Below are positions 14,382-28,510 of a DNA stretch of 34,249 nt, one piece after another. Below the pieces are notes generated by a model that did no database searches, had not been told where the DNA came from, and saw only the letters and a program-made list of their open reading frames with translations. The stretch comes from Synergistaceae bacterium. GTDB lineage: Bacteria; Synergistota; Synergistia; Synergistales; Synergistaceae. A program made the position numbers and the translations under genes. Location of the stretch: positions 1 through 34,249 of the forward strand of contig JAUNSQ010000002.1 of NCBI GenBank assembly GCA_030539135.1, in the 5' to 3' direction. Each line of letters opens with the position of its first letter. Within the stretch, counting starts at the first letter, position 1.

Positions 14382-15809
14382 TCACTTATCCTCCTTCGCT
14401 CTATTTGCGAATAGTATGAAGAGCAGCAGCGATAGAGCGCACCCCGGCAGTATCGGGTGCAGAGCGCCGACGACTCCGGGGGCGGCAATGCCCGTCATGC
14501 CCATTGACGTGGATTTGTAAGCGAACAGATACCAGAGTATCGAGCCGATAAATCCGCCGACCGATGAGAACATTGCCGCCCTTGCCCCAGCCTGCGGCCC
14601 CCTCGCTATGAGCATCAGGTACGGTACGATGATGGCGCAGGCTAGCAGAGTCCAACTGGTGGTGCAAATAAGGGCGATTATCGAGGAACTCTTGAGCGCG
14701 AACAGTCCGCTTGAAAACGTGCAGAGTACGACTACTATCCTCCAAGACCATCCCTCAAGGTTTTTGCCGAACACATCGCGCCCAAGGCTGCCGCTGGCTA
14801 TGTGCAGCAGAGCTGACGCGGTGGAGAGCGAAGCTGAGACGATAGCCAGCGCGAACAGCTGCTGCCCGAAGGCCGGGAGGAGCTGGCCGACCAGCATCGG
14901 CATCACAATATCAGGGTTCGTGATGTTCGGGCCGAGCAGCAGGCGCGAGAGCGCGCTTGCGAAGTACGCGCCGCCTACGACGACCGATAGCGCCAACATA
15001 GCCAGAGGGGCGGTCTTCCTTGTTTCGTTCAGGCTTTTGAGCGCAAAATGCCTTTGTATCAGTTGCGGCTGCGCCCAGATACCGACAGACGTTACGAGTG
15101 TCAGGAATATGATATTAAGTCCGGCCGGGCCGCCGCTCAGTGCCATAAAGCCGTTGTTGGCGGCCGGCGTCGGAGGCAGCGCGGCGAGCGCCTTCATCCC
15201 TGCGACAGGGCCGCCCACGGCCTTGAGCAGAGCTATAAGCAGAGCTCCGATCCCTATCGTCATGATAAGCCCCTGCGCAGCCTCGGTATAGAGCACTCCG
15301 CGCAATCCGCCCCATACGACGCTCATCCCTACGATGACCGCTAGAAGTATCAGCGCTGTGTTGACCGGTATCGCGATAACTCCCGCCAGCATGACCGCCG
15401 CCCCCTTAAATACTGCCGAGCCGTAGACGACCAGCAGAATAGTCGATATCGCTCCGAGGAAGACCTGCAGCGCGTGGGTCTCGTAGGCTTTTGAGAGCAG
15501 TTCCGCGGGAGTGCGCGAGTTCAGCTTCCTCTGCCAAAGGCGCGTCGGCCAAGCGAGGTAACGGTACACGAACCACGTGCCGAACCATACATTGCCCGCC
15601 GCTATCAGCAGCATCTGCATCCCGAAAAGGTAGCACAGCCCGCCGAAGCCGACCAGCGCGACCGCGGAGACGTATGTCGCAACGTAGGCGAGAGCCTGCA
15701 CCATGACGCTGACCTTTCCCGGCAGCAACGCGTCGCTGCCGCGCGAGAACTTGGCTATACCGATAAGAAGAAGAGCGTACGCGATCCAAAGAGGGATGAA
15801 GGTAAACAT
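14382..15809 (-). CDS. sodium:solute symporter family (SSF) transporter, substrate unknown
   Basis: 475 aa with about 13 TM helices. The N-terminal pattern (YVATYVSAVALVGFGG...G) is typical of SSF (PutP/PanF-like). Confidence 0.75.
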   Translation of the reverse strand: MFTFIPLWIAYALLLIGIAKFSRGSDALLPGKVSVMVQALAYVATYVSAVALVGFGGLCYLFGMQMLLIAAGNVWFGTWFVYRYLAWPTRLWQRKLNSRTPAELLSKAYETHALQVFLGAISTILLVVYGSAVFKGAAVMLAGVIAIPVNTALILLAVIVGMSVVWGGLRGVLYTEAAQGLIMTIGIGALLIALLKAVGGPVAGMKALAALPPTPAANNGFMALSGGPAGLNIIFLTLVTSVGIWAQPQLIQRHFALKSLNETRKTAPLAMLALSVVVGGAYFASALSRLLLGPNITNPDIVMPMLVGQLLPAFGQQLFALAIVSASLSTASALLHIASGSLGRDVFGKNLEGWSWRIVVVLCTFSSGLFALKSSSIIALICTTSWTLLACAIIVPYLMLIARGPQAGARAAMFSSVGGFIGSILWYLFAYKSTSMGMTGIAAPGVVGALHPILPGCALSLLLFILFANRAKEDK

Positions 15810-15810
15810 C

Positions 15811-15915
15811 TTATTTGACCGCGGCTCTCTTGATTATCATAAAGGCCGACCACGCCGCGCTCCAAAGAAGAGAAGCTCCCGAGAACACTACCCACATATC
15901 CGTTGATGAAAACAT
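15811..15915 (-). CDS. 34-aa single-TM peptide translationally coupled to the symporter (candidate small subunit)
   Basis: MFSSTDMWVVFSGASLLWSAAWSAFMIIKRAAVK. AAAGGGG lies upstream of the ATG at 15915. Its stop codon is 1 nt from the symporter ATG. Confidence 0.55.
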   Translation of the reverse strand: MFSSTDMWVVFSGASLLWSAAWSAFMIIKRAAVK

Positions 15916-15979
15916 TTGTAAAACCCCTTTCCGTATTTGAAAACCCTTGTTCGAATTTTTATAAAAACGCGCGCATAAC

Positions 15980-16013
15980 AAAAAGACCGCCATCCCTCAG
16001 GACGGCGGTCTTC
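15980..16013 (-). terminator. intrinsic terminator inside the 5' leader of the symporter operon (attenuator)
   Basis: Minus strand reads GAAGACCGCCGUCC-UGAG-GGAUGGCGGUCUUUUU, a 14-bp stem with a tetraloop and a U-run. It lies between the promoter/leader ORF and the first structural gene. Confidence 0.75.
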
Positions 16014-16039
16014 GAAATGTGCGGCTATTTTATACTAGC

Positions 16040-16147
16040 TTACCGGAATTCGCAGAAAACACCATTTGCCCCGAGGCGCTGTGAGCAGCGAGGATAAGAG
16101 TAAACATAATAATAATTGAACGCAAAGCTGTTATTCCGCATACACAT
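16040..16147 (-). CDS. Tyr-rich leader peptide (35 aa; 33 aa if it starts at the second ATG, 16141)
   Basis: MCMRNNSFAFNYYYVYSYPRCSQRLGANGVFCEFR. GAAGGAGG lies 3 nt upstream of the first ATG and 9 nt upstream of the second. Five Tyr codons fall within seven positions, with 2 Phe just upstream. Confidence 0.55.
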   Translation of the reverse strand: MCMRNNSFAFNYYYVYSYPRCSQRLGANGVFCEFR

Positions 16148-16186
16148 GTGCCTCCTTCAAAGGTGTTTTTCGTTTCATTGACGGGA

Positions 16187-16215
16187 ATTCTACACCCACT
16201 TTAGCGTGGTGTCAA
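16187..16215 (-). promoter_or_regulatory. near-consensus sigma70 promoter of the Tyr-leader/symporter transcript
   Basis: Minus strand reads TTGACA (16215-16210), exactly 17 nt, then TAGAAT (16192-16187). Confidence 0.6.
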
Positions 16216-16260
16216 GTGTGAGTGGTAAAACCTACAAGTGGTAAAGTATTTCATATAGCA

Positions 16261-16293
16261 AATTAAAATAGGAGAGGCGTTTGCCCCTCCTAT
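16261..16293 (-). terminator. terminator of the nitroreductase gene
   Basis: Minus strand reads ATAGGAGGGGCAAACGCCTCTCCTAT followed by TTTAATTT. Confidence 0.6.
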
Positions 16294-16310
16294 AGCTGTC
16301 TGTATCGTCT

Positions 16311-16850
16311 TTATTCCACGAACCTTGCTATTTCTTCGAGAGGTTTGCGTTTCTTGGGGCGGACGGTTCCGTCCGTCGGATGCCCGAGCGCTACGACGAC
16401 ACGTATCGTCTGACCGGAGGGGATGTCTAGGAGCCTCTTGACCTCGTCTTCGTCGAACGTTCCCATGATGCAGGAAGCGAGCCCAAGCTCCGCGGCCCTG
16501 AGGGTTATGCAGACGACGGCGGCTCCGAGGTCTCCCTGCGCGAACTGCTTGCAGCTCCACTTTTCAAGAACGGCTGGCATGAGCCTTGGGCATTCCTCTT
16601 CGCATACTACGATGAGGGCCGGTACGTTCTCGGAGAATTTGTTTCCGTCCACGCACTGCAAAAGCTCCGAGAGCTTATGTCTCTTTTCGGCGTTCGTTAC
16701 GACTACGAAGTTCCACGGCTGGCTGTTGCATCCCGACGGGGCCAGACGCGCAGCGTCAAGGCACGCGTTTATCTCTTCCTTCGTCACGGGCGCGCCGTCG
16801 TATGAGCGGCAGCTTTGGCGCGTTGCCATCAGTTCCATAAAATCTTTCAT
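16311..16850 (-). CDS. nitroreductase-family flavoprotein
   Basis: Contains RQSCRSY, APSGCNSQPW, and VVALGHP near the C-terminus. AAGGAGAG SD. Confidence 0.85.
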   Translation of the reverse strand: MKDFMELMATRQSCRSYDGAPVTKEEINACLDAARLAPSGCNSQPWNFVVVTNAEKRHKLSELLQCVDGNKFSENVPALIVVCEEECPRLMPAVLEKWSCKQFAQGDLGAAVVCITLRAAELGLASCIMGTFDEDEVKRLLDIPSGQTIRVVVALGHPTDGTVRPKKRKPLEEIARFVE

Positions 16851-16907
16851 CGATATCTCTCCTTGCCATTTAGATTTTCTAAAAGTATACAGCTTTTGCT
16901 ATTTCCA

Positions 16908-18269
16908 TTAAATCCTTATTTTGTGCCATTTCCCATATTTTAGGTATAGCAGCCCGATGACTATCGAGACGGAAGAGGCCAGCGGAGCGGCGAAGCCGAC
17001 TGTAAAGAGGCTCGCCCCGTCAAGCCCGCTCAGTATCCACGTGGCGGGGACCCTTATCAGGAACGCCGCGAGGAGGTTGTTCGCCATGCTGAACGGCGTG
17101 TGTCCGCAGCCGTTGAAAAATCCGTTGAGGCAGAAGACGAAGCATACGAGCACGCAGTCGAGGCTGAACGACCTGAAGTATAACGCGGCGGCCGCGATGA
17201 GTTCCCTGTCGGGCGTGAATACTCGCGTGAGTATATGCGGGCAGAAGAACAGTATGGCATAAGATACGACGCCGAACGCGAGCGACACGGCTATGCCGAC
17301 GTAGAGCGCGGTTCGAGCGCGCTTTGGCCTGCGAGCGCCCATATTCTGGGCGACGACGGCGGATATCGCGGCGGAGAAGGCCGTTGGCGGCAGCATCGTG
17401 AAGCCGTTTATCCTTCCCGATACGCCGATAGCCGCAGAGGCTACGACGCCTCCCATCTGGTTGACCGTAGCCATAATGAACATGAATGAGACCGTGGTAA
17501 GCGACATCTGGGCGGACATTGGCAGCCCGAGCACGAACAGCTTCTTGACCTTATCCGCGTCCATCCTGAAACTTTTTAGCTTGAAGTCAAATCTGTTGAA
17601 AGACTGCTTCTTAAGAAACACGACCGCGAGCAGCGCGCTCAGCCCCTGCGAGAGTATCGTGGCCAGCGCCGCTCCTCCGGCGCCCATGCCGAAGCGCCCT
17701 ACGAGCAGGAGGTCTCCGAAGACGTTGCATACGCACGCGATGGCTACGAACAGCAGCGGGCTCTTCGAGTCTCCGAAGCCGCGGAGCATGGCGCTGAGTG
17801 CGTTATACGCGAACATGAAGAGTATGCCAGCGACGTTGACGTATATATACGCCTCCGCCTGCGCGACCGCCTCGGGCGGAGTTTTCAGAACGGCGACGAG
17901 CGGCTTCACCGCAAAGAGCAGCGCGACCGTTAGAACTGCCCCAATGATCGCGAAGAGGGTGAACATTGTAGCGATGGTGCTCTTTATTTCTTTATCGTTA
18001 CCCGCGCCGAAATATTGTCCTATGAGTATCGTTCCGCCCATGGACATCCCGATAACGAGGCCGTTTATGAACATCATGAACTGGCTGCCTATAGCTACTG
18101 CCGAGAGCCCGGCTGCGTTCGTGAATTGTCCGACTATTATCATATCCGCCGCTCCATAGAGAGCTTGGAGCAGGTTTGCCAGCATGTATGGGATAGCGAA
18201 TTTGATCAGCAGCGGAGCGATGCGCCCTTCGGTAAGGTCCTGCTGCTTGAACGAGAACGCGCCGCTCAA
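16908..18269 (-). CDS. MATE-family efflux transporter
   Basis: 453 aa with 12 TM helices. The N-terminal LIKFAIPYMLANLLQALYGAADMIIVGQ is the canonical MATE signature. TTG start. Confidence 0.85.
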   Translation of the reverse strand: MSGAFSFKQQDLTEGRIAPLLIKFAIPYMLANLLQALYGAADMIIVGQFTNAAGLSAVAIGSQFMMFINGLVIGMSMGGTILIGQYFGAGNDKEIKSTIATMFTLFAIIGAVLTVALLFAVKPLVAVLKTPPEAVAQAEAYIYVNVAGILFMFAYNALSAMLRGFGDSKSPLLFVAIACVCNVFGDLLLVGRFGMGAGGAALATILSQGLSALLAVVFLKKQSFNRFDFKLKSFRMDADKVKKLFVLGLPMSAQMSLTTVSFMFIMATVNQMGGVVASAAIGVSGRINGFTMLPPTAFSAAISAVVAQNMGARRPKRARTALYVGIAVSLAFGVVSYAILFFCPHILTRVFTPDRELIAAAALYFRSFSLDCVLVCFVFCLNGFFNGCGHTPFSMANNLLAAFLIRVPATWILSGLDGASLFTVGFAAPLASSVSIVIGLLYLKYGKWHKIRI

Positions 18270-18385
18270 TTTAGCGTCGTCCTGTAGGTGCGAGCGATAT
18301 TTGTATTGGGTCCTTTTAGAATGTATATCATGTCGTCAATTTAACACCGTTCTGAGGTGTTTGCAATCGTAAAACCAACGAAATA

Positions 18386-18409
18386 GGGCCCGCGTATACG
18401 CGCGGGCCC
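18386..18409 (-). terminator. GC-rich hairpin terminator after hom
   Basis: GGGCCCGCG-TATACG-CGCGGGCCC forms a 9-bp GC stem. On the minus strand it is followed by TATTTCGTTGGTTTT. Confidence 0.6.
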
Positions 18410-18429
18410 ATTCAATATTTTATCGGTTC

Positions 18430-19443
18430 TTATGCCATCGCTATGACGTCTGTCAGAAGCGCCTGGGCCGTTTCCGTGCGCCCCGCGCCGGGGCCTATCA
18501 GCGTCACGTCGCCTAGGTTGTCCGTCGTTATCGTGACGGCGTTCGTCGCTCCCTCGACAGAGGCCAGAGGGTGCGAGATATGTATCTCCTTGGGCTGCAC
18601 ATAGGCGTACAGGCCGAGCGGAGTTACCTCAAGGCCCGCTATCAGCTTGACGCGATACCCGGCGGCCAGTGATTCTTTGATCTTCTCAGGGGTCACGTCG
18701 GTTATTCCCGTCCTCTTGACGTCGCCCACATGGATGATTTTATCGAAAGCTATCTTTGCGAGGATAGCGACCTTGCCCGCCGCGTCCCAGCCTTCTACGT
18801 CGCCCGACGGATCTGCCTCTGCGTAGCCGAGTTCGGTAGCTTTCTCAAGCGCCTCGGCGTATGTCATGCCGTTTGTCATCTGCGATAGGATATAGTTCGT
18901 TGTGCCGTTGAGTATGCCCTCGATCTTTTGTATCGCGCATCCAGCCATTCCGTGGCGCAGCATGTCGATGAGAGGCGTCCCGCTCATGACGACGCCCTCG
19001 TAGCGCAGTTTTGCGCCGCATTCTTCAGCTAGCTTTTGAAGTTCGTCGGCCGCGACCGCGACGGGGCCCTTGTTCGTCATCGTAACGTTTATGCCGCGCG
19101 ATAAGGCTGCCTTTATATGGCTGAGCCCCGGTTCGCCTGTTTTGAGGTCCGTCGGCGTGACTTCCGCCAAGATCGTGGCCTCTGATTTTTCAAGCGTTTC
19201 GACGAAAGAACCGTCAAATTGCGGAAAACCTTTGAAAGAATTTTTTTTGTGGAGCATATCGAGCGCGGCCGCCAAGTCTATGCCGTTCGGGTCGACTACC
19301 GTGCCTTTCATAAGGTCGGTAACCATTGTGACCTCAAATTTGAAGCCGTATTTTTCGTCAAGCAAAGCGCGTTTCTTGTGAAGCAGTTCGAGGAACGCAG
19401 TCCCAACATTGCCGCATCCGGCGAGCGCGATTTTGTTTATCAA
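18430..19443 (-). CDS. hom: homoserine dehydrogenase (short form, no ACT domain)
   Basis: Contains IALAGCGNVG, NGTTNYIL, LGYAEADPSGDVEGWDAAGK and GPGAG. TTG at 19443 has AAGGAG 9 nt upstream. The track ORF extends to the ATG at 19500, which overlaps a TATACT -10-like box. Confidence 0.8.
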   Translation of the reverse strand: MINKIALAGCGNVGTAFLELLHKKRALLDEKYGFKFEVTMVTDLMKGTVVDPNGIDLAAALDMLHKKNSFKGFPQFDGSFVETLEKSEATILAEVTPTDLKTGEPGLSHIKAALSRGINVTMTNKGPVAVAADELQKLAEECGAKLRYEGVVMSGTPLIDMLRHGMAGCAIQKIEGILNGTTNYILSQMTNGMTYAEALEKATELGYAEADPSGDVEGWDAAGKVAILAKIAFDKIIHVGDVKRTGITDVTPEKIKESLAAGYRVKLIAGLEVTPLGLYAYVQPKEIHISHPLASVEGATNAVTITTDNLGDVTLIGPGAGRTETAQALLTDVIAMA

Positions 19444-19516
19444 TGCTACCAGCTCCTTGGAAAAGGGGTATGAAAAATTAATATCAGAGTAGTATAGCAT
19501 AAATCGGCTGATACGA

Positions 19517-19546
19517 CAGAGCGGCGTCCTGCGGGACGCCGCTCTG
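19517..19546 (-). terminator. perfect 13-bp hairpin after the DEAD-box helicase gene (no clear U-tract)
   Basis: CAGAGCGGCGTCC-TGCG-GGACGCCGCTCTG. Confidence 0.4.
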
Positions 19547-19568
19547 AGCTTTGGCTGTTATTATTACG

Positions 19569-21401
19569 CTATTTTGAGAAGCGTCTCCTCTTAGGGCGTT
19601 CGGTTGTTTCGCCTCTGCCCGAGCGCTGCCCGTCGTGCCTTGAGTAGTCTCTGCGGGCCGGTCTGCCCTCGGAACGACGCTGGCCGTCGTCTCTTCTGCC
19701 CTCGCGGCGTCCGAAACTTCCGGGTTCGGTGTTCTTGACCGCTCCGGTAGGAAGTCCTTCGCGTTCCAGTCTGTCCTTGCGGGCTTCAAACAGCGCCGCG
19801 CCTCTCGACGAGAGCTCTACTGTCGCGCTGTGGTCGCGGAGCTTTATGTTGCCCACATCGTCGCGGCCCACGCCTATGCAGCGGCATATCATGCCGAGAA
19901 GAGGGCCGACCTCCCATCCGTCCTGGCGTCCCGCCGTGAACTGAATGGATATCCCGCCTTCCATCTCGCGCAGCCTGTAACGCTCCCTTGCGCCTGCCGC
20001 GCCGTGAGAGTCTCCTCTTTCGGAGGAGCGCCCGCCGCTTGGCCTCTGAGCCTTGTTGCGGTTCATCTCCGCCGCGACGTCCTCGCGTATCGAGTAGCCG
20101 GACGGCTGGTCGCCGTATGCCTTGGCAAGCAGCCCAGAGACGAGCATCACCGCGTCGTCGCGAGTGAGGAGCTCCTCGGCCCATGGCTGGAATTCGTTCG
20201 ACTCAAGCGCGGGGTCGAGGGTCGTCTTCTCGAAGCGCACGCGCGACTGTCCCTCTATCTCGTCGGCGTCCGGCGCGGGCTGCCAATCCATCTTCATCTT
20301 GGAACCCGCGTTCTGCGCCATAAATTTGAACTGGCGGGCTTCGCGTGATGTGAGGAGCAGCATATTGCTGCCCTCGTGTCCGGCGCGGCCCGTGCGTCCG
20401 CTGCGGTGTACGAAGGATTCGAGGTTCTGCGGAAGGCCGAACTGGATGACGTGGCTTACAGCGTCTATGTCAAGCCCGCGAGCGGCCACGTCCGTCGCTA
20501 CGAGTATCGAGACCCTTCCGCCGCGGAGTGCGTTGAGCGCGTTGTTCCTCTCGCGCTGGCTCATATCGCCGTGGATGGCCGTTGCGCGGAAACCGTTGTC
20601 GCAGAGTTTGTCCGCGATGTCCTGCGTCTCGGCCCTTGTGCCGCAGAAGAGCAGCGCGCGGCTGGGGGCTTCCCAGATGAGGACGTTAGTCAGCCCTTCA
20701 AAGCGTCTGCGCGATGGGATGATGTACGCCTTCTGCGTGATGTCTTCGTGCGACGTTATGTCGGATACCAGAGATATCTTTATCGGTGCGTCGAGGTAGC
20801 GTTTAGCGAGTGAAAGCACCTCCGCCGGCATTGTGGCGGAGAAGAGCCATGTCCTCTCCGAATGCGGCATGGCTTCAAGTATCGACTCAAGTTCCTCGCG
20901 GAAGCCCATGTCGAGCATGTTGTCGCCCTCGTCGAGAACGATGCTGTCCACGGAGTCGCCCTTGAACGTTCCGCGCTTGATATGGTCGAGAAGACGCCCA
21001 GGCGTGCCTACGACGACGTTAGCGCCGTCGCGCAGCGAACGTATTTGACGCTCCATATCGAGCCCGCCAACAAGAGTCGCCACCTTAACGCCGCAGTCGG
21101 CCCCGACCCATGCGAATTCGCGCGCGGTCTGCTGCGCAAGTTCGCGTGTTGGAGAGAGCACGAGTATTTGCGGCTCTCTTCTCTTCGTGTCCATGATGTT
21201 GATGAGCGGCAGCGCGAAAGCCAGCGTTTTGCCCGAGCCAGTCTTTGCCTGTACGATTATGTCGCTGTCGATGAGGCTTTCGTCTTCGAGCACGCGCACC
21301 TGTACCGGCATCGGCGTCTCAAAACCTTTTTTCTCGAGTGCATGGAGCAGCTCGCTCCGCAGATCAAAGTCTGCGAACTTTACATTTGTTTCCTGTGTCA
21401 T
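19569..21401 (-). CDS. DEAD-box ATP-dependent RNA helicase with a DbpA-type RNA-binding domain and an RG-rich tail
   Basis: Q-motif region FETPMPVQ; motif I AKTGSGKT; motif II reads DEGD; SAT; HRSGRTGRAG. The C-terminus is RREGRRDDGQRRSEGRPARRD... Confidence 0.9.
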   Translation of the reverse strand: MTQETNVKFADFDLRSELLHALEKKGFETPMPVQVRVLEDESLIDSDIIVQAKTGSGKTLAFALPLINIMDTKRREPQILVLSPTRELAQQTAREFAWVGADCGVKVATLVGGLDMERQIRSLRDGANVVVGTPGRLLDHIKRGTFKGDSVDSIVLDEGDNMLDMGFREELESILEAMPHSERTWLFSATMPAEVLSLAKRYLDAPIKISLVSDITSHEDITQKAYIIPSRRRFEGLTNVLIWEAPSRALLFCGTRAETQDIADKLCDNGFRATAIHGDMSQRERNNALNALRGGRVSILVATDVAARGLDIDAVSHVIQFGLPQNLESFVHRSGRTGRAGHEGSNMLLLTSREARQFKFMAQNAGSKMKMDWQPAPDADEIEGQSRVRFEKTTLDPALESNEFQPWAEELLTRDDAVMLVSGLLAKAYGDQPSGYSIREDVAAEMNRNKAQRPSGGRSSERGDSHGAAGARERYRLREMEGGISIQFTAGRQDGWEVGPLLGMICRCIGVGRDDVGNIKLRDHSATVELSSRGAALFEARKDRLEREGLPTGAVKNTEPGSFGRREGRRDDGQRRSEGRPARRDYSRHDGQRSGRGETTERPKRRRFSK

Positions 21402-21575
21402 TGTTGGATTTCCTCCCCTAATTTGCGCCGTTGCCGAAATCCCTGCGTATGGCGCAACAAGAGTAAGGCAGTTGAAAAGTTCTATCCCAATATTACAAGC
21501 CCGCGATAGGCTGAAGGTCTTTCCGCAACAGCGAACGGTCTTTGACCGTTATTGTGGCAAAGCCACAGTTGAGAC

Positions 21576-21603
21576 ATTATGATGGCTAATCGAAAAAAGT
21601 CAA
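21576..21603 (-). promoter_or_regulatory. candidate promoter giving a 5' UTR of about 170 nt for the helicase
   Basis: Minus strand reads TTGACT (21603-21598), a 16-nt spacer, then CATAAT (21581-21576). Confidence 0.4.
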
Positions 21604-21616
21604 GGGCGGATTGGCC

Positions 21617-22954
21617 TTATTCAGGCTTATATATCTCCATATCCTGCGGGAGTATCAGATCCATGACGATTGCCACGACGAAGACGACGGCTACGCAGTT
21701 TCCTGAGAAGACGTCCTTCACCATCTGGGGGAATATCTTCCATATCCCCATCTCGCTGGCGGTCGTGAACCCTATCCCAATGGCGAGCGATAGAGCCGCT
21801 ATCGTGATATTGCGCTGAGTGAACCCTGCGTCCGACAGCATACGTATCCCGCTGACCATTATCGAGCCGAAGAGCATTATCGTGCAGCCGCCTAGCACGG
21901 ACTCTGGCAGAGAGTTGAACAGCGCCCCGATCACAGGGACGAACCCCGCGAGTATCATGCAGACCGCGCCGGTCATTATCGTGAAGCGGTTGACTACCTT
22001 TGTCATAGCTATGAGCCCGACGTTCTGGCTGAACGACGTTACCGGGGTGCAGCCGAAAAGCCCTGATATCGAACTGGCGAAGCCGTCGCAGGCGAGAGAG
22101 CCGGATATCTCTTTATCAGTTATCTCCCTCTCCAGACCCATCGCCACCATCGCGGTAGTGTCTCCTATCGTCTCCGTTGCGGAGACGAGAAATATTATCG
22201 CGACGGATATTATTGCGTTTATGTTAAAGACGGGCGTAAAGGGCATGAGTTTCGGCACGGATATTATCCCGTGTCCCATTATGCCGGATATGTCCACGAT
22301 GCCGAGACACAGCGCTGCGGCGTACCCCACGAAAAGTCCCACGAGCACGGAAAGCTGTTTTAGATGACCCTTAGCGAAGATGTTGAACGCGATGCACGTT
22401 GCAAGCGTTATGGCGCCGAGCGTAAGGTTCTGCGCAGAGCCGAACGAGCTCGTATAGCCGCCGCCGAACGACCTCGCCCCGATGCCGAGCAGCGAATACC
22501 CTATGGCGGTAACGACGGACGCCGCGACGATGGGCGACACGATCTTTCTCCAATATTTAGCGCAGAGTCCGAGAGTGCCCTCAAACATCCCTCCGACGAT
22601 AACGGCTCCTATGACCGCCGGATAACCGTAATTAGCTCCGACGTAGCTGAGTATCGTCACAAACGTGAAACTGACGCCCATGACTATCGGCAGACGAGCG
22701 CCGACGCGCCAGATGGGGTAAAGCTGTATGAGAGTCCCTATACCGGCGGCGAACATGGAGTTCTGGAGCAGCATAGTCATATCCGAGGCTGGGAGTTTGC
22801 AGGCGGACCCCACGACCGCGATCGGAGCGAGGTTGGCTACGAACATGGCGAGCACGTGCTGCAGCCCGAAAGGTATCGCCTTCAAAAGCGGGACTCTGCC
22901 GTCCAAGCGGTAGATATTTTCTATAGATGCGTTCTGTTGTTTATGCTGGCTCAT
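21617..22954 (-). CDS. NCS2-family nucleobase (uracil/xanthine-type) permease
   Basis: Contains GLQHVLAMFVANLAPIAVV and FSQNVGLIAMT motifs. 445 aa with about 13 TM helices. Confidence 0.85.
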   Translation of the reverse strand: MSQHKQQNASIENIYRLDGRVPLLKAIPFGLQHVLAMFVANLAPIAVVGSACKLPASDMTMLLQNSMFAAGIGTLIQLYPIWRVGARLPIVMGVSFTFVTILSYVGANYGYPAVIGAVIVGGMFEGTLGLCAKYWRKIVSPIVAASVVTAIGYSLLGIGARSFGGGYTSSFGSAQNLTLGAITLATCIAFNIFAKGHLKQLSVLVGLFVGYAAALCLGIVDISGIMGHGIISVPKLMPFTPVFNINAIISVAIIFLVSATETIGDTTAMVAMGLEREITDKEISGSLACDGFASSISGLFGCTPVTSFSQNVGLIAMTKVVNRFTIMTGAVCMILAGFVPVIGALFNSLPESVLGGCTIMLFGSIMVSGIRMLSDAGFTQRNITIAALSLAIGIGFTTASEMGIWKIFPQMVKDVFSGNCVAVVFVVAIVMDLILPQDMEIYKPE

Positions 22955-23022
22955 AAGATGTCCCTCCGTGTTAATTTAAGTAAATATATCATACTATCTG
23001 TCTTGACGGATGAAAATTTCGT

Positions 23023-23051
23023 TTGACACACGGCTGAAAAGATGGTAATAT
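23023..23051 (+). promoter_or_regulatory. near-consensus sigma70 promoter of the Ile-leader/OFOR transcript
   Basis: TTGACA (23023-28), exactly 17 nt, then TAATAT (23046-51). Confidence 0.6.
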
Positions 23052-23083
23052 CCCGCGTATTCTGAGAGAGGGAGGGCGTTGCT

Positions 23084-23158
23084 ATGTTGCGCAAGTCATT
23101 CAATAACAACATCATTATTATAATTAACGCGGCTCCTCCTCGCAGGATCGGCGTCTAG
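23084..23158 (+). CDS. Ile-run leader peptide (24 aa)
   Basis: MLRKSFNNNIIIIINAAPPRRIGV. GGGAGGG lies 7 nt upstream of the ATG. There are five consecutive Ile codons (ATC ATT ATT ATA ATT, 23111-23125) and a sixth near the end. Confidence 0.65.
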   Translation: MLRKSFNNNIIIIINAAPPRRIGV

Positions 23159-23180
23159 CGCCGTTTGTCCAAGCGAGTAA

Positions 23181-23216
23181 GGGAGCCTTTCACGATTGTG
23201 AGGGGCTCCTTTTTTT
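23181..23216 (+). terminator. intrinsic terminator (attenuator) upstream of the OFOR operon
   Basis: GGGAGCCUUUCAC-GAUU-GUGAGGGGCUCC forms a 12-13 bp stem followed by UUUUUUU. It sits 29 nt upstream of the gamma-subunit ATG. Confidence 0.8.
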
Positions 23217-23244
23217 GTGGTTTAAATCAAAGGAGGAGTTTCAA

Positions 23245-23823
23245 ATGGAAAAAGGCAAGACGATCGAAGTACGCTGGCACGGACGCGGGGGACAGGGAGC
23301 GAAGAGCGCTTCCGCGATACTAGCTGAGGTGCTGTTTGAGGGAGGAAAACACGTGCAGGCTTTCCCGGAGTACGGAGCGGAGCGTCAGGGTGCGCCGATG
23401 CGAGCCTATAACAGGGTCTCCGACAGGCCCATACGCCGCCGCTGCGGGGTCCAGAACCCAAATATAGTCGTCGTCGTAGACCCGACGATGGTCGAGAGCG
23501 CAAACCCATGCGAGGGCTGCGCGAAGGACGCCGTATATCTCGTGAACACGCCGGAGGACGCGAAGACCCTGCGCGAGAGGATGCACCTCTCACAGCGCGC
23601 GAAAGTGCTGGCGGTAGACGCTACGAAGATAACGCTCGAGGAGCTTGGGCAGAACAGGCCGAACGCGCCGATACTCGGAGCGCTGTCGAGGATATTCACG
23701 GACGTATCCGTAGATAATTTCGCCGACCACTTCACGAAGAAGATGAAGAAGCTGCCGCAGAACGTCATAGACGCGAACCGCAGGGCGATACTCAGAGGCC
23801 GCGAAGAGGCGGTGCTGGCATGA
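23245..23823 (+). CDS. 2-oxoacid:ferredoxin oxidoreductase, gamma subunit (POR/VOR family)
   Basis: Contains GRGGQGAKSASAILAE...AFPEYGAERQGAP. AAAGGAGG SD. Confidence 0.85.
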   Translation: MEKGKTIEVRWHGRGGQGAKSASAILAEVLFEGGKHVQAFPEYGAERQGAPMRAYNRVSDRPIRRRCGVQNPNIVVVVDPTMVESANPCEGCAKDAVYLVNTPEDAKTLRERMHLSQRAKVLAVDATKITLEELGQNRPNAPILGALSRIFTDVSVDNFADHFTKKMKKLPQNVIDANRRAILRGREEAVLA

Positions 23824-24164
23824 GCGAACCGCAGTGCTGGCAGGACGTCGCTCCCGGGACTGTCGCTTTCGGCGCGACCGCGCTGGAAGTGGAGACCGGG
23901 CTTTGGCGGAGCGTGCGTCCTGTCTTCGACCTCAATAAATGCGTGTCATGTATGAAATGCTGGTTCCAGTGCCCGGATATGTCAGTCAAACTGGGCGAAG
24001 GCGGCAAGGTTTGCGGAGCAGACCTCTTCTTCTGCAAGGGCTGCGGGATATGCGCTTCCGTCTGTCCGGTGAAAGCCGTAACGATGCGTCCCGAATCAGA
24101 TTTCAGCGACGAACGTGATAAACATGGCGCGAACCCCGGAGGCGTGGCCGACCATGTCAAATAA
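23820..24164 (+). CDS. 2-oxoacid:ferredoxin oxidoreductase, delta subunit (2x[4Fe-4S] ferredoxin-type)
   Basis: Contains CVSCMKCWFQCP and CKGCGICASVCP. ATGA overlap with the gamma subunit gene. Confidence 0.85.
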   Translation: MSEPQCWQDVAPGTVAFGATALEVETGLWRSVRPVFDLNKCVSCMKCWFQCPDMSVKLGEGGKVCGADLFFCKGCGICASVCPVKAVTMRPESDFSDERDKHGANPGGVADHVK

Positions 24165-25347
24165 GAGACGCGAGATGACCTCGGGAAACTTGGCTTTCGC
24201 CGAGGCGATGAGGCAGATAAATCCAGACGTCGTAGCCGCGTACCCTATAACCCCGTCCACCGATATCCCCGTCCGCTTCGCCGAATTTGTCGCGAACGGG
24301 CAGGTAGATTCCGAATATGTTGCGGTCGAGAGCGAGCACTCCGCGATAACGGCATGCGTGGGCGCGTCCGTCGCCGGCGCGCGCGTCATGACCGCGTCGA
24401 GCGCCAACGGAGTCGCGCTGATGCATGAGATATTCCCTATAGCTTCGGCCTTTAGGGCCCCGATCGTATTTGGCCTTGTGAACAGATGCCTCGGAGCGCC
24501 GGTCAATATCCACTGCGACCATTCGGACAGCATGGCCGAGCGAGATTCTGGGTGGATACAGATATACTGCGAGGACGCGCAGGAAGTCTACGACAGCGTG
24601 CTTCTCGCGGTCAGGCTGGCGGAGCATAAGAAGGTGCTTACTCCTGTGTTCGTCTGTCAGGACGGATTTATAACGAGCCATTGTTTTGAGCCTGTGGAAT
24701 TCCTCGCCGACGACGCGGTGAAAAAATTTGTCGGCGTCCGCGACCCGCAGTACCCCCTGCTTGACGTTGACAACCCCGTTTCATACGGCTCGTTCACGAT
24801 GTCCGAATACTATTTTGAGATCAAACGCAATCAGATAGAGGGCATCAACAACGTGCCGAAAGTATATCGCGAACTGTCGGCGGAGTTGGCGAAAGAGACC
24901 GGCCGCGAATATCCGATGGTCGACGCTTACAGGGCCGACGACGCGGACTATCTGATAATCATCATGTCCTCCGCGTCGGGAGTCGTCAAGGACGTCGTCG
25001 ATGAGATGCGCGAGGACGGCGTAAAGGCAGGATGTCTGCGCGTGAGGTTTTTCCGCCCGTTTCCGAAGGACGACTTGATGCGCCTTGTGAACGGCAAGAA
25101 GGGAGTCGCCGTTCTTGACAGGTGCCTTAGCATCGGAGGTTCGGCCCCGCTTGCCGCGGAGGTCAAGGCCGCGCTCTATGGGCTTGAACGCCGCGTGCCT
25201 GTGCAGGAATATGTGTTCGGCCTCGGAGGCCGCGATTTCTATCCAAAGGACGCCATCGACGTGTTCTGCAAGCTGGCCGATGATAATTACAGCCCGTCAG
25301 TGCGTTACATAGGCCTCCGCGAGAAGGAGGAAGAAAATGTCTATTGA
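24154..25347 (+). CDS. 2-oxoacid:ferredoxin oxidoreductase, alpha subunit
   Basis: Contains GNLAFAEAMRQINPDVVAAYPITPSTDI. The start is uncertain (ATG at 24154 or 24175); the track start at 24115 is probably too early. Confidence 0.85.
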   Translation: MSNKRREMTSGNLAFAEAMRQINPDVVAAYPITPSTDIPVRFAEFVANGQVDSEYVAVESEHSAITACVGASVAGARVMTASSANGVALMHEIFPIASAFRAPIVFGLVNRCLGAPVNIHCDHSDSMAERDSGWIQIYCEDAQEVYDSVLLAVRLAEHKKVLTPVFVCQDGFITSHCFEPVEFLADDAVKKFVGVRDPQYPLLDVDNPVSYGSFTMSEYYFEIKRNQIEGINNVPKVYRELSAELAKETGREYPMVDAYRADDADYLIIIMSSASGVVKDVVDEMREDGVKAGCLRVRFFRPFPKDDLMRLVNGKKGVAVLDRCLSIGGSAPLAAEVKAALYGLERRVPVQEYVFGLGGRDFYPKDAIDVFCKLADDNYSPSVRYIGLREKEEENVY

Positions 25348-26266
25348 TCTCAAGGAACTCATAAAGAAGCCGAACCCCCTTACTCAGGGGCATCGCATGT
25401 GCCCGGGCTGCGGAGCGCCGACGGCGATACGCCAAGCTCTCATGGCTGTGGACGACCCAGTAGTTATCGTGGGGGCCACGGGGTGCATGGAGGTATCGAC
25501 GACTGTATATCCATACAGCGCGTGGCGCGTCCCGTTCATGCACGTGGCTTTTGAGAACGCGGGGGCTGGAATATCCGGCGTGCAGGCCGCGCATAAGGTA
25601 TTGAGCAGACAGGGCCGCGCGAAAGAGGGTATTAAATTCGTCGCGTTCGGCGGTGACGGGGGAACGTACGATATCGGGCTTCAGTCGCTCTCAGGCGCGC
25701 TAGAACGCGGGCATGACTTTACGTACATCTGCTACAACAATCAGGGCTACATGAACACGGGGGCGCAGAGGAGCAGCGCTACGCCGCTGAACGCGAGCGC
25801 GACCACCTCGCCCGCCGGGAGCGTCATCCCCGGAAAATTGCAGAGGGCGAAAGACCTTACGGAGATCGTAGCGGCACACAACATACCTTATGTTGCGCAG
25901 ACGACGTTGCACGACCCTATGGACCTCATAAAGAAAGTCAAGAGGGCCGTAGAGACGCCCGGCCCGGCGTTCGTCAACGTGCTCGTCCCGTGCGTCCTCT
26001 TCTGGAAGATAGACCAAGGCGACCAGATGAAGATATGTCAGTTGGCCGCCGACAGCCGTTTCTGGCCCGTGTACGAGGTCGCGGGCGGGAAATACAGCCT
26101 ATCATACAAGCCGAAGAAGGACGTCCCGCTTGAGGACTTTCTTCGCGCGCAGGGCAGATACTCGCACCTCTTCAAAAAGGGCAGGGAGCGCATGGACCTC
26201 GTAGCGGCCGCGCAGGCCGACGTTGACGAGAGCTGGAAGAAACTGCTTGTGAAGTGCGCGCTCTAA
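25337..26266 (+). CDS. 2-oxoacid:ferredoxin oxidoreductase, beta (TPP-binding) subunit
   Basis: Contains GHRMCPGCG and FGGDGGTYDIG...NNQGYMNTG. Confidence 0.85.
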   Translation: MSIDLKELIKKPNPLTQGHRMCPGCGAPTAIRQALMAVDDPVVIVGATGCMEVSTTVYPYSAWRVPFMHVAFENAGAGISGVQAAHKVLSRQGRAKEGIKFVAFGGDGGTYDIGLQSLSGALERGHDFTYICYNNQGYMNTGAQRSSATPLNASATTSPAGSVIPGKLQRAKDLTEIVAAHNIPYVAQTTLHDPMDLIKKVKRAVETPGPAFVNVLVPCVLFWKIDQGDQMKICQLAADSRFWPVYEVAGGKYSLSYKPKKDVPLEDFLRAQGRYSHLFKKGRERMDLVAAAQADVDESWKKLLVKCAL

Positions 26267-26306
26267 TGATAAGTTTTGCGAAATATCCGCTTTGTATAAA
26301 TTTGCG

Positions 26307-26335
26307 TTGTGTTTTACAAAAATATGTGATATTAT
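26307..26335 (+). promoter_or_regulatory. candidate extended -10 promoter of the Trp-leader/trpB transcript
   Basis: TTGTGT (26307-12), a 17-nt spacer, then TGaTATTAT (extended -10; hexamer at 26330-35). Confidence 0.4.
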
Positions 26336-26367
26336 CCACGCAATCTTGAGATTTAGGGGAAATTTTT

Positions 26368-26427
26368 ATGGTATCAGTTCTTGCGAACGACATGAATAAA
26401 ACAAACTGGTGGTGGCTTCGCGCTTAG
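26368..26427 (+). CDS. Trp-run leader peptide (19 aa)
   Basis: MVSVLANDMNKTNWWWLRA. AGGGGA lies 8 nt upstream of the ATG. There are three consecutive UGG codons at 26407-26415. Confidence 0.65.
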   Translation: MVSVLANDMNKTNWWWLRA

Positions 26428-26460
26428 AATGCCCGCCGGTTTCCCTGTGTATTGATGTAA

Positions 26461-26499
26461 GGGCTCGGACGGGTAAAACGTCGGAGCCCTTTTTATTTT
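26461..26499 (+). terminator. intrinsic terminator T1 (attenuator) upstream of trpB
   Basis: GGGCUCGGACG-GGUAAAA-CGUCGGAGCCC (10 bp, one G.G mismatch) followed by UUUUUAUUUU. Confidence 0.75.
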
Positions 26500-26506
26500 G
26501 GAAGAG

Positions 26507-26544
26507 ATGAAAGGGGAGGAAACAAACCCCTTTCATTTTTTTAT
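26507..26544 (+). terminator. second intrinsic terminator T2 in the trpB leader
   Basis: AUGAAAGGGG-AGGAAACAAA-CCCCUUUCAU forms a perfect 10-bp stem followed by UUUUUUUA. Confidence 0.65.
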
Positions 26545-26595
26545 ATATCGAATACAGCTGAGATAAGCTGAGAAAAGACTGAGGAGGAAACAATC

Positions 26596-27792
26596 ATGAC
26601 AACAAGGACAGCAGGTTTTCCAGAGGGAAAAATGTACGGGAATTTCGGCGGCATGTACGTGCCGAAGGAACTAGAGCCGATAATGACGGAGATCGCCGCG
26701 GAATACGAGAAGTGCAAGGCCGACCCTACGTTCAAAGAAGAATATCTAAGGCTCATGAAGGAATATGTCGGCCGCCCGTCCGCGCTGACAGAATGCGGGA
26801 ACCTTTCAAAAGAGACAGGAGGCGCGCGTATCTTCCTAAAGCGCGAAGACCTGAACCATACCGGAGCGCACAAGATAAACAACTGCATCGGACAGGCCCT
26901 TCTTGCCCGCCGCATGGGAAAGAAAAAGATAATAGCCGAGACTGGAGCCGGGATGCACGGAGTCGCCGCCGCGACCGTAGCCGCCCTGATGGGCATGGAG
27001 TGCGACATCTATATGGGAGCTGTGGACGTGGCGCGTCAGGCTCCGAACGTACTGCGCATGAAGGCTCTGGGGGCGCGGGTCGTATCCGTCGAGGCGGGAC
27101 AGAAGACATTGAAGGAGGCCGTCGACGCGGCGCTCGGCGCGCTGTGCGAGGACACGTCGCTCTTCTACCTCATAGGCTCTGCGGTGGGGCCGCACCCGTA
27201 TCCGGCGATGGTGCAGGACTTCCAGCGGATAATAGGCGACGAGGCGAGGGCGCAGATGCTTGAGCGCGAAGGCCGTCTGCCCGACGCGGTAGTCGCTTGC
27301 GTAGGCGGCGGGAGCAACGCGATAGGGGCTTTCACGGCTTTCATAAACGACAAAGGCGTGAGGCTCATCGGAGTCGAGCCTTCCGGCCGCGGGCTGACCT
27401 ATGGCAACCACGCCGCGTCTCTCACGATGGGCAGGCCCGGCGTTCTTCACGGATTTAAGAGCTATGTGCTGACGAAGGACGACGGCGAACCCGCGGAAGT
27501 ATATTCGATAGCGGCGGGGCTCGATTATCCGTCAGTTGGCCCCGCTCACGCCGCGCTCAAAGAGAGCGGCCGCGGCGAGTATATAGGCGCGAGCGACGCG
27601 GAGGCGTTAGACGCCTTCAAGCTCCTCTGCCGCACCGAGGGCATAATCCCCGCGCTTGAAAGCTCGCACGCCTTGGCAGGGGCTCTCAAAGCAGCGAAGA
27701 CCATGAAGGCGGGAGACATCATCCTAGTCAACCTCTCCGGCCGCGGCGACAAAGATATGGAGACCATCGCGAAATTAGGGATATTGGATTAA
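26596..27792 (+). CDS. trpB: tryptophan synthase beta chain (TrpB1-type), stand-alone
   Basis: Contains [15 protein letters not shown] (PLP lysine), [16 protein letters not shown] and SGRGDKD. GAGGAGG SD. No trpA or other trp genes are in the window. Confidence 0.9.
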
Positions 27793-27830
27793 GCGACGAT
27801 AGGCCAAACTATACATTTGCTGTTTATATG

Positions 27831-27857
27831 GGCGCGGGTATTTCTGCCGCGTCCTTT
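27831..27857 (+). terminator. weak terminator-like hairpin after trpB
   Basis: GGCGCGG (27831-37) pairs with CCGCGTC (27847-53), followed by CTTTG. Confidence 0.35.
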
Positions 27858-27931
27858 GTGATATGTTCCACGATGCTCGCTTTTGTGCTAATATTTTATA
27901 GATACAATCGGTTGCATTGCGAGGTGGTCGA

Positions 27932-28510
27932 ATGAAAGTTACTATGAGCGACGTGGCGAAGGCCGCGGGAGTCGATAAAGCTACCGTCAGCCGGGCCTTG
28001 AAGGGCGACCCCCGGATATCCGAGAAGACCAGGGCGCTTGTCATGGACAGCGTGCGCACGCTTGGCTACAGACCCGACCTCAACGCCCGCCACCTTTCGA
28101 CGAACCGCAGCGGCTTCATCGGCCTGCTGCTCAGGGAGCTCAACGCGCCCGGAAGCATCGAGTTCATCTCCGGGCTTGACCGAGCTATTTCCAATTCCGA
28201 ATATGACCTTCTCATAAAGTGCACCGACGGCGACCCGCGCAGGGCCGCGCGCGAGCTTGCCAAACTGTCCGACAGGGACATCGAGGGTTTGATATGGGAA
28301 GATTCGGAGAACTTGCCTAAGGATATTTCCGTGCCATTGCTGACCATCGGATTTAAGCACAGTGGTTCAATATCATTGCTGTCCGAGGACGGTGGGCGGC
28401 TCCTGACATTTGAGACGGGAGCTCTAGCCGGGAGGCTGCTGCTGAACGCGATAATGGGGCGGCCTGTCCCGACCCACGAGGTCATCATCAGAAATTCCAA
28501 AGGGGAATAA
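27932..28510 (+). CDS. LacI-family HTH regulator, unusually short (192 aa)
   Basis: The HTH is MKVTMSDVAKAAGVDKATVSRALKGDPRISEKTRALVMDSVRTLGYRPDLNARHL. This is followed by only about 130 aa of sugar-binding-like domain, whereas normal family members have about 270 aa. Confidence 0.8.
   Translation: MKVTMSDVAKAAGVDKATVSRALKGDPRISEKTRALVMDSVRTLGYRPDLNARHLSTNRSGFIGLLLRELNAPGSIEFISGLDRAISNSEYDLLIKCTDGDPRRAARELAKLSDRDIEGLIWEDSENLPKDISVPLLTIGFKHSGSISLLSEDGGRLLTFETGALAGRLLLNAIMGRPVPTHEVIIRNSKGE

Follow-up and report, generated by a model that had tools for sequence, protein, structure and literature searches.

A stretch of 34,249 nucleotides from a Synergistaceae bacterium (GenBank assembly GCA_030539135.1, contig JAUNSQ010000002.1, positions 1 to 34,249; this whole stretch is called the window) raises the question of how three of its transcription units are controlled. 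Each unit is preceded by a very short open reading frame (ORF) with a run of one amino acid: tyrosine before a symporter gene, isoleucine before the genes of a four-subunit oxoacid:ferredoxin oxidoreductase (OFOR), and tryptophan before trpB. Each of these leader ORFs has a Shine-Dalgarno sequence (SD) on its 5' side and an intrinsic terminator on its 3' side. We conclude that the region very probably contains three independent classical ribosome-mediated (leader-peptide) transcription attenuators, each sensing the charging of one tRNA species. The ORFs, the codon runs, the terminators and the alternative pairings are present in the window, and their conservation and covariation are observed in related genomes.

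Three leader regions of one design

The features of the three leader regions are as follows.

16187..16215, minus strand: tyrosine leader promoter, TTGACA-17-TAGAAT, 11/12 consensus matches
16040..16147, minus strand: tyrosine leader ORF of 35 codons, MCMRNNSFAFNYYYVYSYPRCSQRLGANGVFCEFR and stop, run YYYVYSY, SD-preceded
16049..16075, minus strand: tyrosine segment 2 (CUCGGGGCAAAUGGUGUUUUCUGCGAA), the antiterminator 5' strand, inside leader codons 25-33
15977..16013, minus strand: tyrosine terminator, stem 16013..15982 with 14 pairs, and U tract
23023..23051, plus strand: isoleucine leader promoter, TTGACA-17-TAATAT with TG extension, from the consensus scan
23084..23158, plus strand: isoleucine leader ORF, MLRKSFNNNIIIIINAAPPRRIGV and stop, run IIIII with the Ile codons at 23111..23125, SD-preceded
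23131..23143, plus strand: isoleucine segment 2 (GGCUCCUCCUCGC), the antiterminator 5' strand, codons 16-20/24
23149..23163, plus strand: small hairpin CGGCGUCUAGCGCCG within the antiterminator, its loop holding the isoleucine leader stop codon, conserved in the alignment
23173..23187, plus strand: isoleucine antiterminator 3' strand, overlapping the terminator
23181..23210, plus strand: isoleucine terminator stem, with U tract to 23216, from the fold and covariation
26327..26335, plus strand: extended -10 element TGaTATTAT, probable promoter of the tryptophan leader, read from the sequence
26368..26427, plus strand: tryptophan leader ORF, MVSVLANDMNKTNWWWLRA and stop, run WWW; the Trp codons 26407..26415 are segment 1
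26430..26446, plus strand: tryptophan segment 2 (UGCCCGCCGG..CCCU), pairing with the Trp codons (1:2) or with the terminator 5' arm (2:3)
26460..26499, plus strand: tryptophan terminator T1, stem 26461..26489, U tract 26490..26499, fold of -21.9 kcal/mol
26506..26542, plus strand: terminator T2 (GAUGAAAGGGG..CCCCUUUCAU and U6), a strong hairpin between T1 and trpB

The spacing from SD to start codon is 7-9 nt in all three leaders, and ORF, SD and start are retained in relatives. The codon runs are conserved as codons in all three cases, with synonymous exchange inside the runs. A scanner was used that reported an SD-preceded ORF of 8-45 codons only if it contained a run of one residue and was followed by a hairpin with a U tract, of -9 kcal/mol or below. 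Applied to the intergenic DNA of the window, it returned exactly these three leaders, and none was returned from 10 dinucleotide-preserving shuffles. Applied to 83 kb of Synergistota intergenic DNA, it returned 29 hits against about 1.3 per shuffle. The three leader RNAs are structured, with z scores of -3.7, -2.4 and -3.8.

An earlier note on this DNA had described the same pattern three times, an SD-preceded mini-ORF with a single-residue run and an intrinsic terminator. This description is confirmed here, with some coordinates refined. The combinations exceed their frequency in shuffled intergenic DNA, both in the window and in the 83-kb set, and all three leaders are conserved in relatives (33 loci for Ile, seven lineages for Tyr and five loci for Trp). 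The note had also assigned a strong promoter to each unit. Near-consensus promoters are found for the Tyr and Ile leaders, and the statement holds only loosely for the Trp leader: the consensus scan detected no sigma-70 promoter with at least 9/12 matches there, and the extended -10 element is the candidate.

A common origin of the Ile, Trp and Tyr leaders was considered and rejected. Pairwise local alignments of the sequences downstream of the runs are no better than those of shuffles. As the post-run sequences are mutually dissimilar, the shared grammar is convergent.

Isoleucine leader

Relatives of the Ile leader were surveyed at OFOR loci with a gamma subunit of at least 74% identity, and the alignment includes 34 sequences with the window. 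Homologous loci from related genomes are labeled with L-numbers (L001, L081, L161 and so on). The closest relatives of the OFOR alpha subunit show 86-87% amino-acid identity, and the best 66 genome loci nearly all carry the labels Synergistaceae, Synergistales, Cloacibacillus or Synergistes, in line with a position of the window in Synergistaceae (phylum Synergistota). At 33 related loci, an intact SD-preceded ORF with 4-6 consecutive Ile codons is located in the same place upstream of the same four-subunit OFOR. The leader was not found in more distant Synergistales OFOR loci (Thermovirga, Aminivibrio and Acetomicrobium; 59-65% identity).

According to the alignment, ATT, ATC and ATA interchange freely within the Ile run, and the N-terminal part of the peptide differs between loci in both length and sequence. 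The nucleotides on the 3' side of the run are nearly invariant, third codon positions included, and in the 33 relatives the peptide ends in the nearly invariant tail (N/S)AAP(P/S)R(R/G)(I/N)G(V/A) before the stop codon. The variants of this tail (CCU/CCC, and CCU to UCU, which changes Pro to Ser) fall in an unpaired internal loop. This suggests that the conserved tail is explained by RNA pairing and not by a peptide function.

The terminator helix pairs in 91% of the alignment cells, and 8 of its 13 pairs change on both sides. The stop-codon hairpin is 98.5% paired; three of its pairs are invariant, and three vary on one side only. Tested together, the two elements are 93.5% paired. None of 500 shuffles matched this structure in paired fraction, in cells changed on both sides or in covariation score, and 6 of the 500 reached the count of eight pairs.

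In the antiterminator, GGCUCC..CUCGC of segment 2 pairs with GCGAG..GGAGCC at 23173..23177 and 23182..23187. This helix is paired in 95.8% of cells, as compared with at most 49% when the partner is slid, and compensatory exchanges are present (CG to UA or the reverse in six sequences, GC to UA or the reverse in one). Where the strand shared by the two structures changes from A to G, the terminator partner becomes C, and the antiterminator partner stays U, forming a G-U pair. This is the pattern expected of a strand that would have two alternative partners. The antiterminator reaches -34.5 kcal/mol (z = -4.2) when folded in the absence of the terminator 3' arm. In the minimum-free-energy fold, the SD region is paired with segment 2. 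As an anti-antiterminator, however, this pairing gains no support from covariation (65% paired, no different from shuffles), and it is retained only as a putative state.

A covariance model of the Ile post-run sequence (R1) was searched over 1.94 Mb. All 34 Ile leaders were recovered at 81-103 bits, and no further strong members were found. A Cys paralogue, described below, scored 15.4 bits, and the other weak matches were gene-end terminators.

Tryptophan leader

A metagenome scan for TrpB relatives gave six close homologues (80-87% identity), followed by a gap down to 63%. Upstream of trpB in four of the six close relatives, leaders are found that end in ..GWWRGF, ..NCWWCA, ..NCWWCV or ..NFWWRRP before the stop codon. 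The more distant L087 (TrpB 63% identity) has a leader ending in ..MWWWQP, which brings the further Trp-leader loci to five. The trpB locus of L086 ends at a contig edge, and its leader region is cut. The extended -10 element of the Trp type recurs as TG-n-TA(Y)(Y)AT in L081, L083 and L084, and in a looser form, TGTTACTAT, in L082.

The window and all five relatives fold in the same way, into a 1:2 helix (the Trp codons with the segment after the stop codon) and the 3:4 terminator. If folding is repeated without the terminator 3' arm, all six sequences form a 2:3 antiterminator, with energies from -17.6 to -25.1 kcal/mol (-20.0 in the window), despite their divergence. Against shuffles, z is between -1.6 and -3.0 in five of the six. 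The terminator stems of the relatives are diverged yet intact. In the window the antiterminator 5' strand begins at 26430/26431, three to four nt past the stop codon.

Between T1 and trpB the second terminator, T2, is present, with counterparts in L081, L085 and L087. No promoter is evident in the 53 nt between T2 and trpB. Pairing is possible between the 3' half of T1, U tract included, and the T2 5' half, at -14.3, -17.0, -14.9 and -18.5 kcal/mol in four lineages, and the first three values are well beyond shuffles. Compared with 640 unrelated terminator 5' halves, the T2 5' half of the same locus is among the best 5-14% of partners in all four lineages. According to the folds, the base interrupting the U tract is A in the window and G in L081, and the partner in the T2 5' arm matches it (U and C, respectively). 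These results suggest a relay, in which antitermination would free segment 4 to block T2, and in the terminated state T2 would catch read-through. The evidence for the relay is only suggestive, because any terminator flanked by an A tract and placed after a U tract would behave similarly.

In the Ile leaders and in several Trp leaders (such as L082 and L083), the stop codon lies in the loop of a small GC-rich hairpin, for example GCGUCUAGCG in both. Its role might be that of a pause hairpin, or it might reflect a recurring habit of design; taken as a whole, the Ile and Trp leader sequences show no significant similarity.

Tyrosine leader

For the Tyr leader, homologues of the symporter protein were traced to their contigs, and runs were seen in L161-165, L170, L172 and L174. 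Seven lineages keep a Tyr-rich leader upstream of a small ORF and the symporter. The runs are YYYVYSY in the window, and YYYAYSY, YYYYAYAY, YYYYFYAY (two), YYYYSY and YYYYYTF in the others. A promoter equivalent to that of the window, TTGACA..TATTAT/TATCAT, is present in L161-L165 and L174. The leader start is likely the second ATG, at 16141, giving 33 codons: it lies 9 nt after the SD GGAGG, a good spacing, and it is the start kept in relatives.

An Ile-frame reading was also considered, as the +1 frame of TATTATTAT gives ATT ATT. This reading was rejected. In L165 and L162 this frame lacks a start codon or runs into a stop, and it is also interrupted by TAC codons. Inside the Tyr runs, TAT and TAC are exchanged synonymously. 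The exchange, together with the closing of the overlapping Ile frame in some lineages, indicates that the Tyr frame is the real one.

The terminator arms show compensatory changes across the lineages (GUCC/GGAU, AACC/GGUU, GAUC/GAUC and GCCC/GGGC). The consensus antiterminator is formed by CUCGGGGC..UGGU.UUU, inside codons 25-31, with the terminator 5' arm and loop (16013..15996). In the same seven sequences from which this consensus was derived, it is 88.5% paired, as compared with at most 63% when the partner is slid, and four pairs are changed on both sides. The Tyr antiterminator is thus plausible and moderately supported, not proven. Overall, the antiterminator is well supported for Ile, the support is good for Trp, and it is moderate for Tyr. 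This agrees with the earlier note, which had called the Ile and Trp cases clear and the Tyr case less so.

Proposed mechanism

A constitutive promoter would produce a short leader RNA, on which a ribosome translates the mini-ORF. When the aminoacyl-tRNA is scarce, the Tyr, Ile or Trp run would stall the ribosome. Segment 2, predicted in the last leader codons for Ile and Tyr and directly past the stop codon for Trp, would then remain free to pair with the terminator 5' arm, and RNA polymerase would enter the gene. An unimpeded ribosome would cover or pass segment 2, leaving the terminator hairpin with its U tract to form and end transcription. In the Trp leader without a ribosome, the Trp codons would pair with segment 2, as in the 1:2 / 2:3 / 3:4 layout of the E. 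coli type. Expression of the three units would rise as charging of the cognate tRNA falls.

The geometry was computed from the coordinates, assuming a ribosome footprint of about 12 nt on the 3' side of the A-site codon. Segment 2 stays accessible if the ribosome halts on Ile codons 10-12, on any of the Trp codons or on any of the Tyr codons. In the Trp leader, segment 2 is covered entirely by a ribosome that has reached the stop codon. The proposal that the antiterminator 5' strand lies in the last codons of the Ile leader and just past the stop codon of the Trp leader agrees with the coordinates found here (codons 16-20/24, and 3-4 nt after the stop). The further proposal that completed translation itself occludes this strand holds in full for Trp, where segment 2 is wholly covered; for Ile only the proximal part is covered.

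Probable target genes

The targets named in the earlier note, a transporter, an OFOR and an orphan TrpB, are recovered with added detail: the transporter is an SSS-family symporter accompanied by a membrane ORF of 34 aa, the OFOR has four subunits, and trpB is without trpA.

15811..15915, minus strand: membrane mini-protein of 34 aa (MFSSTDMWVVFSGASLLWSAAWSAFMIIKRAAVK), encoded by the first gene past the Tyr attenuator, read from the sequence
14382..15809, minus strand: SSS-family symporter of 475 aa, target of the Tyr leader, PF00474; TIGR00813/PanF-like, below cut-offs
23245..26266, plus strand: OFOR operon, target of the Ile leader, gamma 23245-23823, delta 23820-24164, alpha 24115-25347, beta 25337-26266
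26596..27792, plus strand: trpB (tryptophan synthase beta), monocistronic, TIGR00263 573 bits, above cut-off

The 34-aa ORF is located directly upstream of the symporter in all relatives examined, and it is called as a gene in only some of them. Its stop codon is 1 nt before the symporter ATG, and no Pfam hit was obtained for it. The mini-protein is probably a small subunit of the symporter. The symporter homologues show 58-84% identity, and those with a source name are from Synergistaceae, Synergistes or Cloacibacillus. Tyr starvation would thus induce a two-component symporter, probably for the uptake of tyrosine or of a tyrosine (hydroxyphenyl) precursor.

The OFOR is nearest to Por subunits, and it is below every NCBIfam equivalog cut-off. 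The alpha subunit scores 476 bits against a cut-off of 550 (PorA_Arch), and 348 against 646 for the alpha subunit of 2-ketoisovalerate:ferredoxin oxidoreductase (PRK08366). For the beta subunit the score is 335 bits with a cut-off of 405, and for the gamma subunit 188 with a cut-off of 270. The only models passed are the broad subfamily ones, TIGR02175 and TIGR02179. It would make no sense for a catabolic enzyme to be induced by a lack of Ile; we therefore infer that the OFOR is an anabolic 2-oxoacid synthase, and to call it a salvage enzyme presumes this direction of regulation. The favored product would be 2-oxobutyrate, made from propionyl-CoA by reductive carboxylation, because the OFOR is POR-like and the codon run is Ile only. 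The alternative would be 2-oxo-3-methylvalerate, made from 2-methylbutyryl-CoA by the same type of reaction. The use of 2-methylbutyrate by anaerobes for Ile synthesis is established physiology (PMC10658910). A preprint on R. rubrum (10.1101/614065), consulted for an OFOR route to Ile, contained nothing usable.

No trpA follows trpB in the window; the next gene is of the LacI type. trpB is also monocistronic in L081 and L083. Trp starvation would induce a stand-alone TrpB, which could make Trp from indole and serine.

Clustering and origin of the elements

From three leaders within 11 kb, a similar density had been expected as a general property. This was not borne out. The idea that the three leaders are syntenic in relatives was rejected, as trpB, the symporter and the xanthine permease gene are absent from all 80 OFOR loci. 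In L009 (12119..12300) and L001 (12150..12315), the OFOR is directly followed by the LacI-type gene. At the same place in the window (26267..27916), the Trp leader and trpB lie between the two, and in L081 the trpB leader sits behind an unrelated gene. These arrangements indicate that leader and trpB form a portable cassette, which was inserted here; this insertion makes the close grouping of the three leaders a peculiarity of the present genome. L001 has a separate terminator after OFOR beta; in the window, none is found from the beta stop codon (26266) to the Trp leader. The attenuator terminators T1 and T2 probably also end the OFOR transcript.

The scanner was further applied to 1.1 Mb of Synergistota loci. 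Beyond the anchored Ile leaders, the hits were at chance level, with the addition of one convincing new element in L033. These loci largely re-sample one neighborhood, and the scanner recovered the Ile leaders of 20 of the 33 relatives; the result is not a genome-wide count. The new element is the following.

L033 400..501, minus strand: Cys leader MSQTFPSVHESGSRFCCCCCLGCVRSSRSDIGG and stop, five consecutive Cys codons, with its own TTGACA promoter and its own terminator to about 357

The Cys leader is located upstream of a periplasmic binding-protein gene. The 90-aa fragment of this protein in L033 gave no NCBIfam hit, and its full-length homologue in L177 belongs to the NMT1 family. Past the codon run, the Cys-leader RNA is homologous to that of the Ile leader (local alignment z = 12.5; none of 500 shuffles as good). 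The comparison suggests that the attenuator RNA downstream of the run is reusable with a different codon run, from Ile to Cys. The element supports the idea that this lineage attaches attenuators to uptake genes.

Taken jointly, the Synergistaceae might use portable plug-in attenuators on scavenging rather than biosynthetic genes, and these might evolve by duplication and codon-run swapping. We hold this broader view tentatively and consider it rather doubtful. What may lead to it is the Cys-swapped paralogue of the Ile leader, the OFOR as a dedicated Ile enzyme of reductive carboxylation, and the two-stage Trp switch.

Evidence against attenuation and alternative explanations

Several points weigh against the assignment as three leader-peptide attenuators. 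Translation of the leaders, conditional termination and the direction of regulation are deduced from the sequence. In the Ile and Tyr leaders, a ribosome that has reached the stop codon shields no more than the proximal part of segment 2; termination must therefore depend on kinetics, with segment 2 being unwound while the terminator is made. For Ile, the state without a ribosome (the SD region paired with segment 2) is without covariation support. The Tyr antiterminator is no more stable than shuffles (z from -2.0 to +0.7), and its consensus was tested on the sequences that yielded it. The strong T2 hairpin between the Trp attenuator and trpB is not explained by a simple attenuation model. 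For the OFOR, with its putative substrate and direction, all equivalog scores are below cut-off. Finally, the leaders are lost or degraded in some relatives. The trpB homologue of L084 (about 3160..3490) has no Trp codons in the equivalent leader region, the symporter homologue of L168 (2020..2500) has no Tyr leader, L167 (2160..2430) has dispersed Tyr codons only, and L177 (900..1120) keeps the Cys promoter and a WCCC leader and has lost the terminator. These elements are thus dispensable.

Structured leader RNAs with z scores as low as those found here would also suit conditional terminators controlled by a trans-acting RNA-binding protein, by uncharged tRNA in the manner of a T-box, or by a small ligand, with the mini-ORFs incidental. 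The Ile sequence past the run, more conserved than the N-terminus of the peptide, fits such control as well. But no riboswitch, T-box or known leader family was matched in the window at the Rfam gathering threshold, or in the three leader regions at E values up to 10. Besides the stems, the only feature kept across diverged lineages is the in-frame single-residue run, with synonymous exchange, an SD and a start codon 7-9 nt on. Three amino acids on three unrelated sequences would in addition require three different factors. We regard this explanation as unlikely. Somewhat less probable still is that the peptides themselves act, as nascent arrest peptides of the TnaC or RAPP type or in trans, and that the Ile tail ..NAAPPRRIGV is functional instead of the codon run. 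The tail is nearly invariant in 33 genomes and contains Pro-Pro, and trans-acting leader peptides exist (peTrpL, PMC7298713). Its conservation, however, reaches third codon positions and matches the nucleotides paired in the antiterminator and the stop-codon hairpin, and where it does vary, the nucleotides belong to the internal loop, which is unpaired. The Tyr and Trp leaders show no peptide conservation in their tails, and the retention of 4-6 identical codons would be left unexplained.

The absence of any other terminator between the OFOR beta stop codon and the Trp leader is what would be seen if the hairpins were ordinary end-of-operon terminators of the upstream genes and the mini-ORFs had arisen by chance. 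This is the least probable of the explanations, and we give it almost no weight. No plus-strand gene precedes the Ile element, which is located in a region of divergent promoters. Upstream of the Tyr element, the preceding gene ends in a terminator of its own (16293..16268), and the Trp leader moves with trpB into other genomic contexts. The combination did not occur in the shuffles of the window, and the conservation data already contradict chance.

Comparison with known systems

By mechanism, the three elements would belong to the class of leader-peptide attenuators, and all defining features of the class that can be tested on a sequence are found. None of the Rfam leader families (Trp_leader, Thr_leader, Leu_leader, His_leader, Phe_leader and others) was matched in the window or in the three regions. 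Our literature searches found no description of leader-peptide attenuators in Synergistetes, and in the open-access full-text literature no paper was found that combines tyrosine codons, a leader peptide and an attenuator.

The Trp leader resembles E. coli trpL (Trp_leader, RF00513) in several respects: its ORF is short, follows an SD and has adjacent Trp codons; these codons belong to segment 1, the pairing partner of segment 2; segment 2 can pair with the terminator 5' arm instead; and segment 2 is covered by a ribosome at the stop codon. In contrast to these likenesses, no similarity in sequence or to the covariance model is found. The leader has three Trp codons here and two in E. coli, and the target is a single trpB here and trpEDCBA there. 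A second terminator is present here, and the stop codon of several relatives lies in a small nested hairpin. In Chlamydia, Trp-responsive control of tryptophan synthase genes serves indole salvage through trpRBA (PMC7755916). That system uses the repressors TrpR and YtgR and keeps trpA, whereas here a leader peptide would control trpB alone.

The enterobacterial ilvL and ivbL leaders mix Leu, Val and Ile codons. Like the Ile leader, they combine a codon-run peptide with a terminator and antiterminator for branched-chain supply. As a difference, the Ile codons here are in an unstructured AU-rich stretch and not in a segment-1 stem. Similar elements are the Corynebacterium ilvB-II upstream ORF (uORF) (PMC10272879) and the leucine-rich attenuator peptide of ilv-leu in S. 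aureus (PMC5794164). The known branched-chain leaders control acetohydroxyacid synthase or ilv-leu operons; the Ile leader is Ile only and would control a ferredoxin-dependent OFOR.

Aromatic-rich leader ORFs that signal the supply of aromatic amino acids are known from pheL-type leaders and from the uORFs encoding Phe and Tyr that adjoin shikimate-pathway genes (Stav et al. 2019, PMC6429828). The leader described here is Tyr only (5/7 in the window, and 5-6 Tyr in 6-8 residues in the relatives that keep the run), and its target would be a transporter operon, not a biosynthetic gene. Firmicutes T-boxes also sense tRNA charging, and their targets include amino acid transporters and salvage genes. 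They bind uncharged tRNA directly without translation, whereas the conserved feature here is a translated codon run, and RF00230 gave no match. The mechanism is thus a textbook one. What sets the elements apart would be their targets (a transporter operon, an OFOR and a trpB that stands alone), the single-residue Ile and Tyr specificity, and the codon-swapped Cys paralogue.

Neighboring genes

On the minus strand, the genes around the leaders are the SSS-family symporter (14382-15809), a nitroreductase-like gene, a MATE exporter, homoserine dehydrogenase, a DEAD-box helicase and a xanthine permease. On the plus strand, they are the four-subunit OFOR (23245-26266), trpB (26596-27792), the LacI-type protein and an Opp/Nik-type ABC transporter.

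Next to the symporter gene, a 553-aa protein is encoded at 12619..14280. Its match to PEPCK_ATP is weak (47.7 bits), and it adjoins the symporter also in L161, L163 and L164. On the other side of the region, the short LacI-type protein (helix-turn-helix, 197 aa, 27917..28510) precedes a 572-aa substrate-binding protein of family 5 (Opp/Nik-type, 28517..30235), in which the two profile halves are in permuted order: residues 47-345 correspond to the C-terminal half of the models, and residues 360-560 to the N-terminal half. L009 has a gene pair of like size at the same position (ORFs of 195 and 567 aa).

Implications

Leaders of 19-35 codons escape gene callers, and the attenuators found with them give functional labels to genes that homology alone cannot assign. 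The POR-like OFOR, if induced by Ile starvation, is a candidate for an anaerobic enzyme that makes the isoleucine keto-acid by reductive carboxylation. Should the tentative view of portable attenuator modules be true, it would be the enzyme of the long-known, genetically unassigned reductive-carboxylation route to Ile. By the same reasoning, a two-component SSS transporter would be tied to tyrosine, and a stand-alone TrpB to Trp starvation, suggesting indole salvage. For Synergistaceae of gut, rumen and digester, the design would fit the topping up of amino acids from fermentation end-products and indole.

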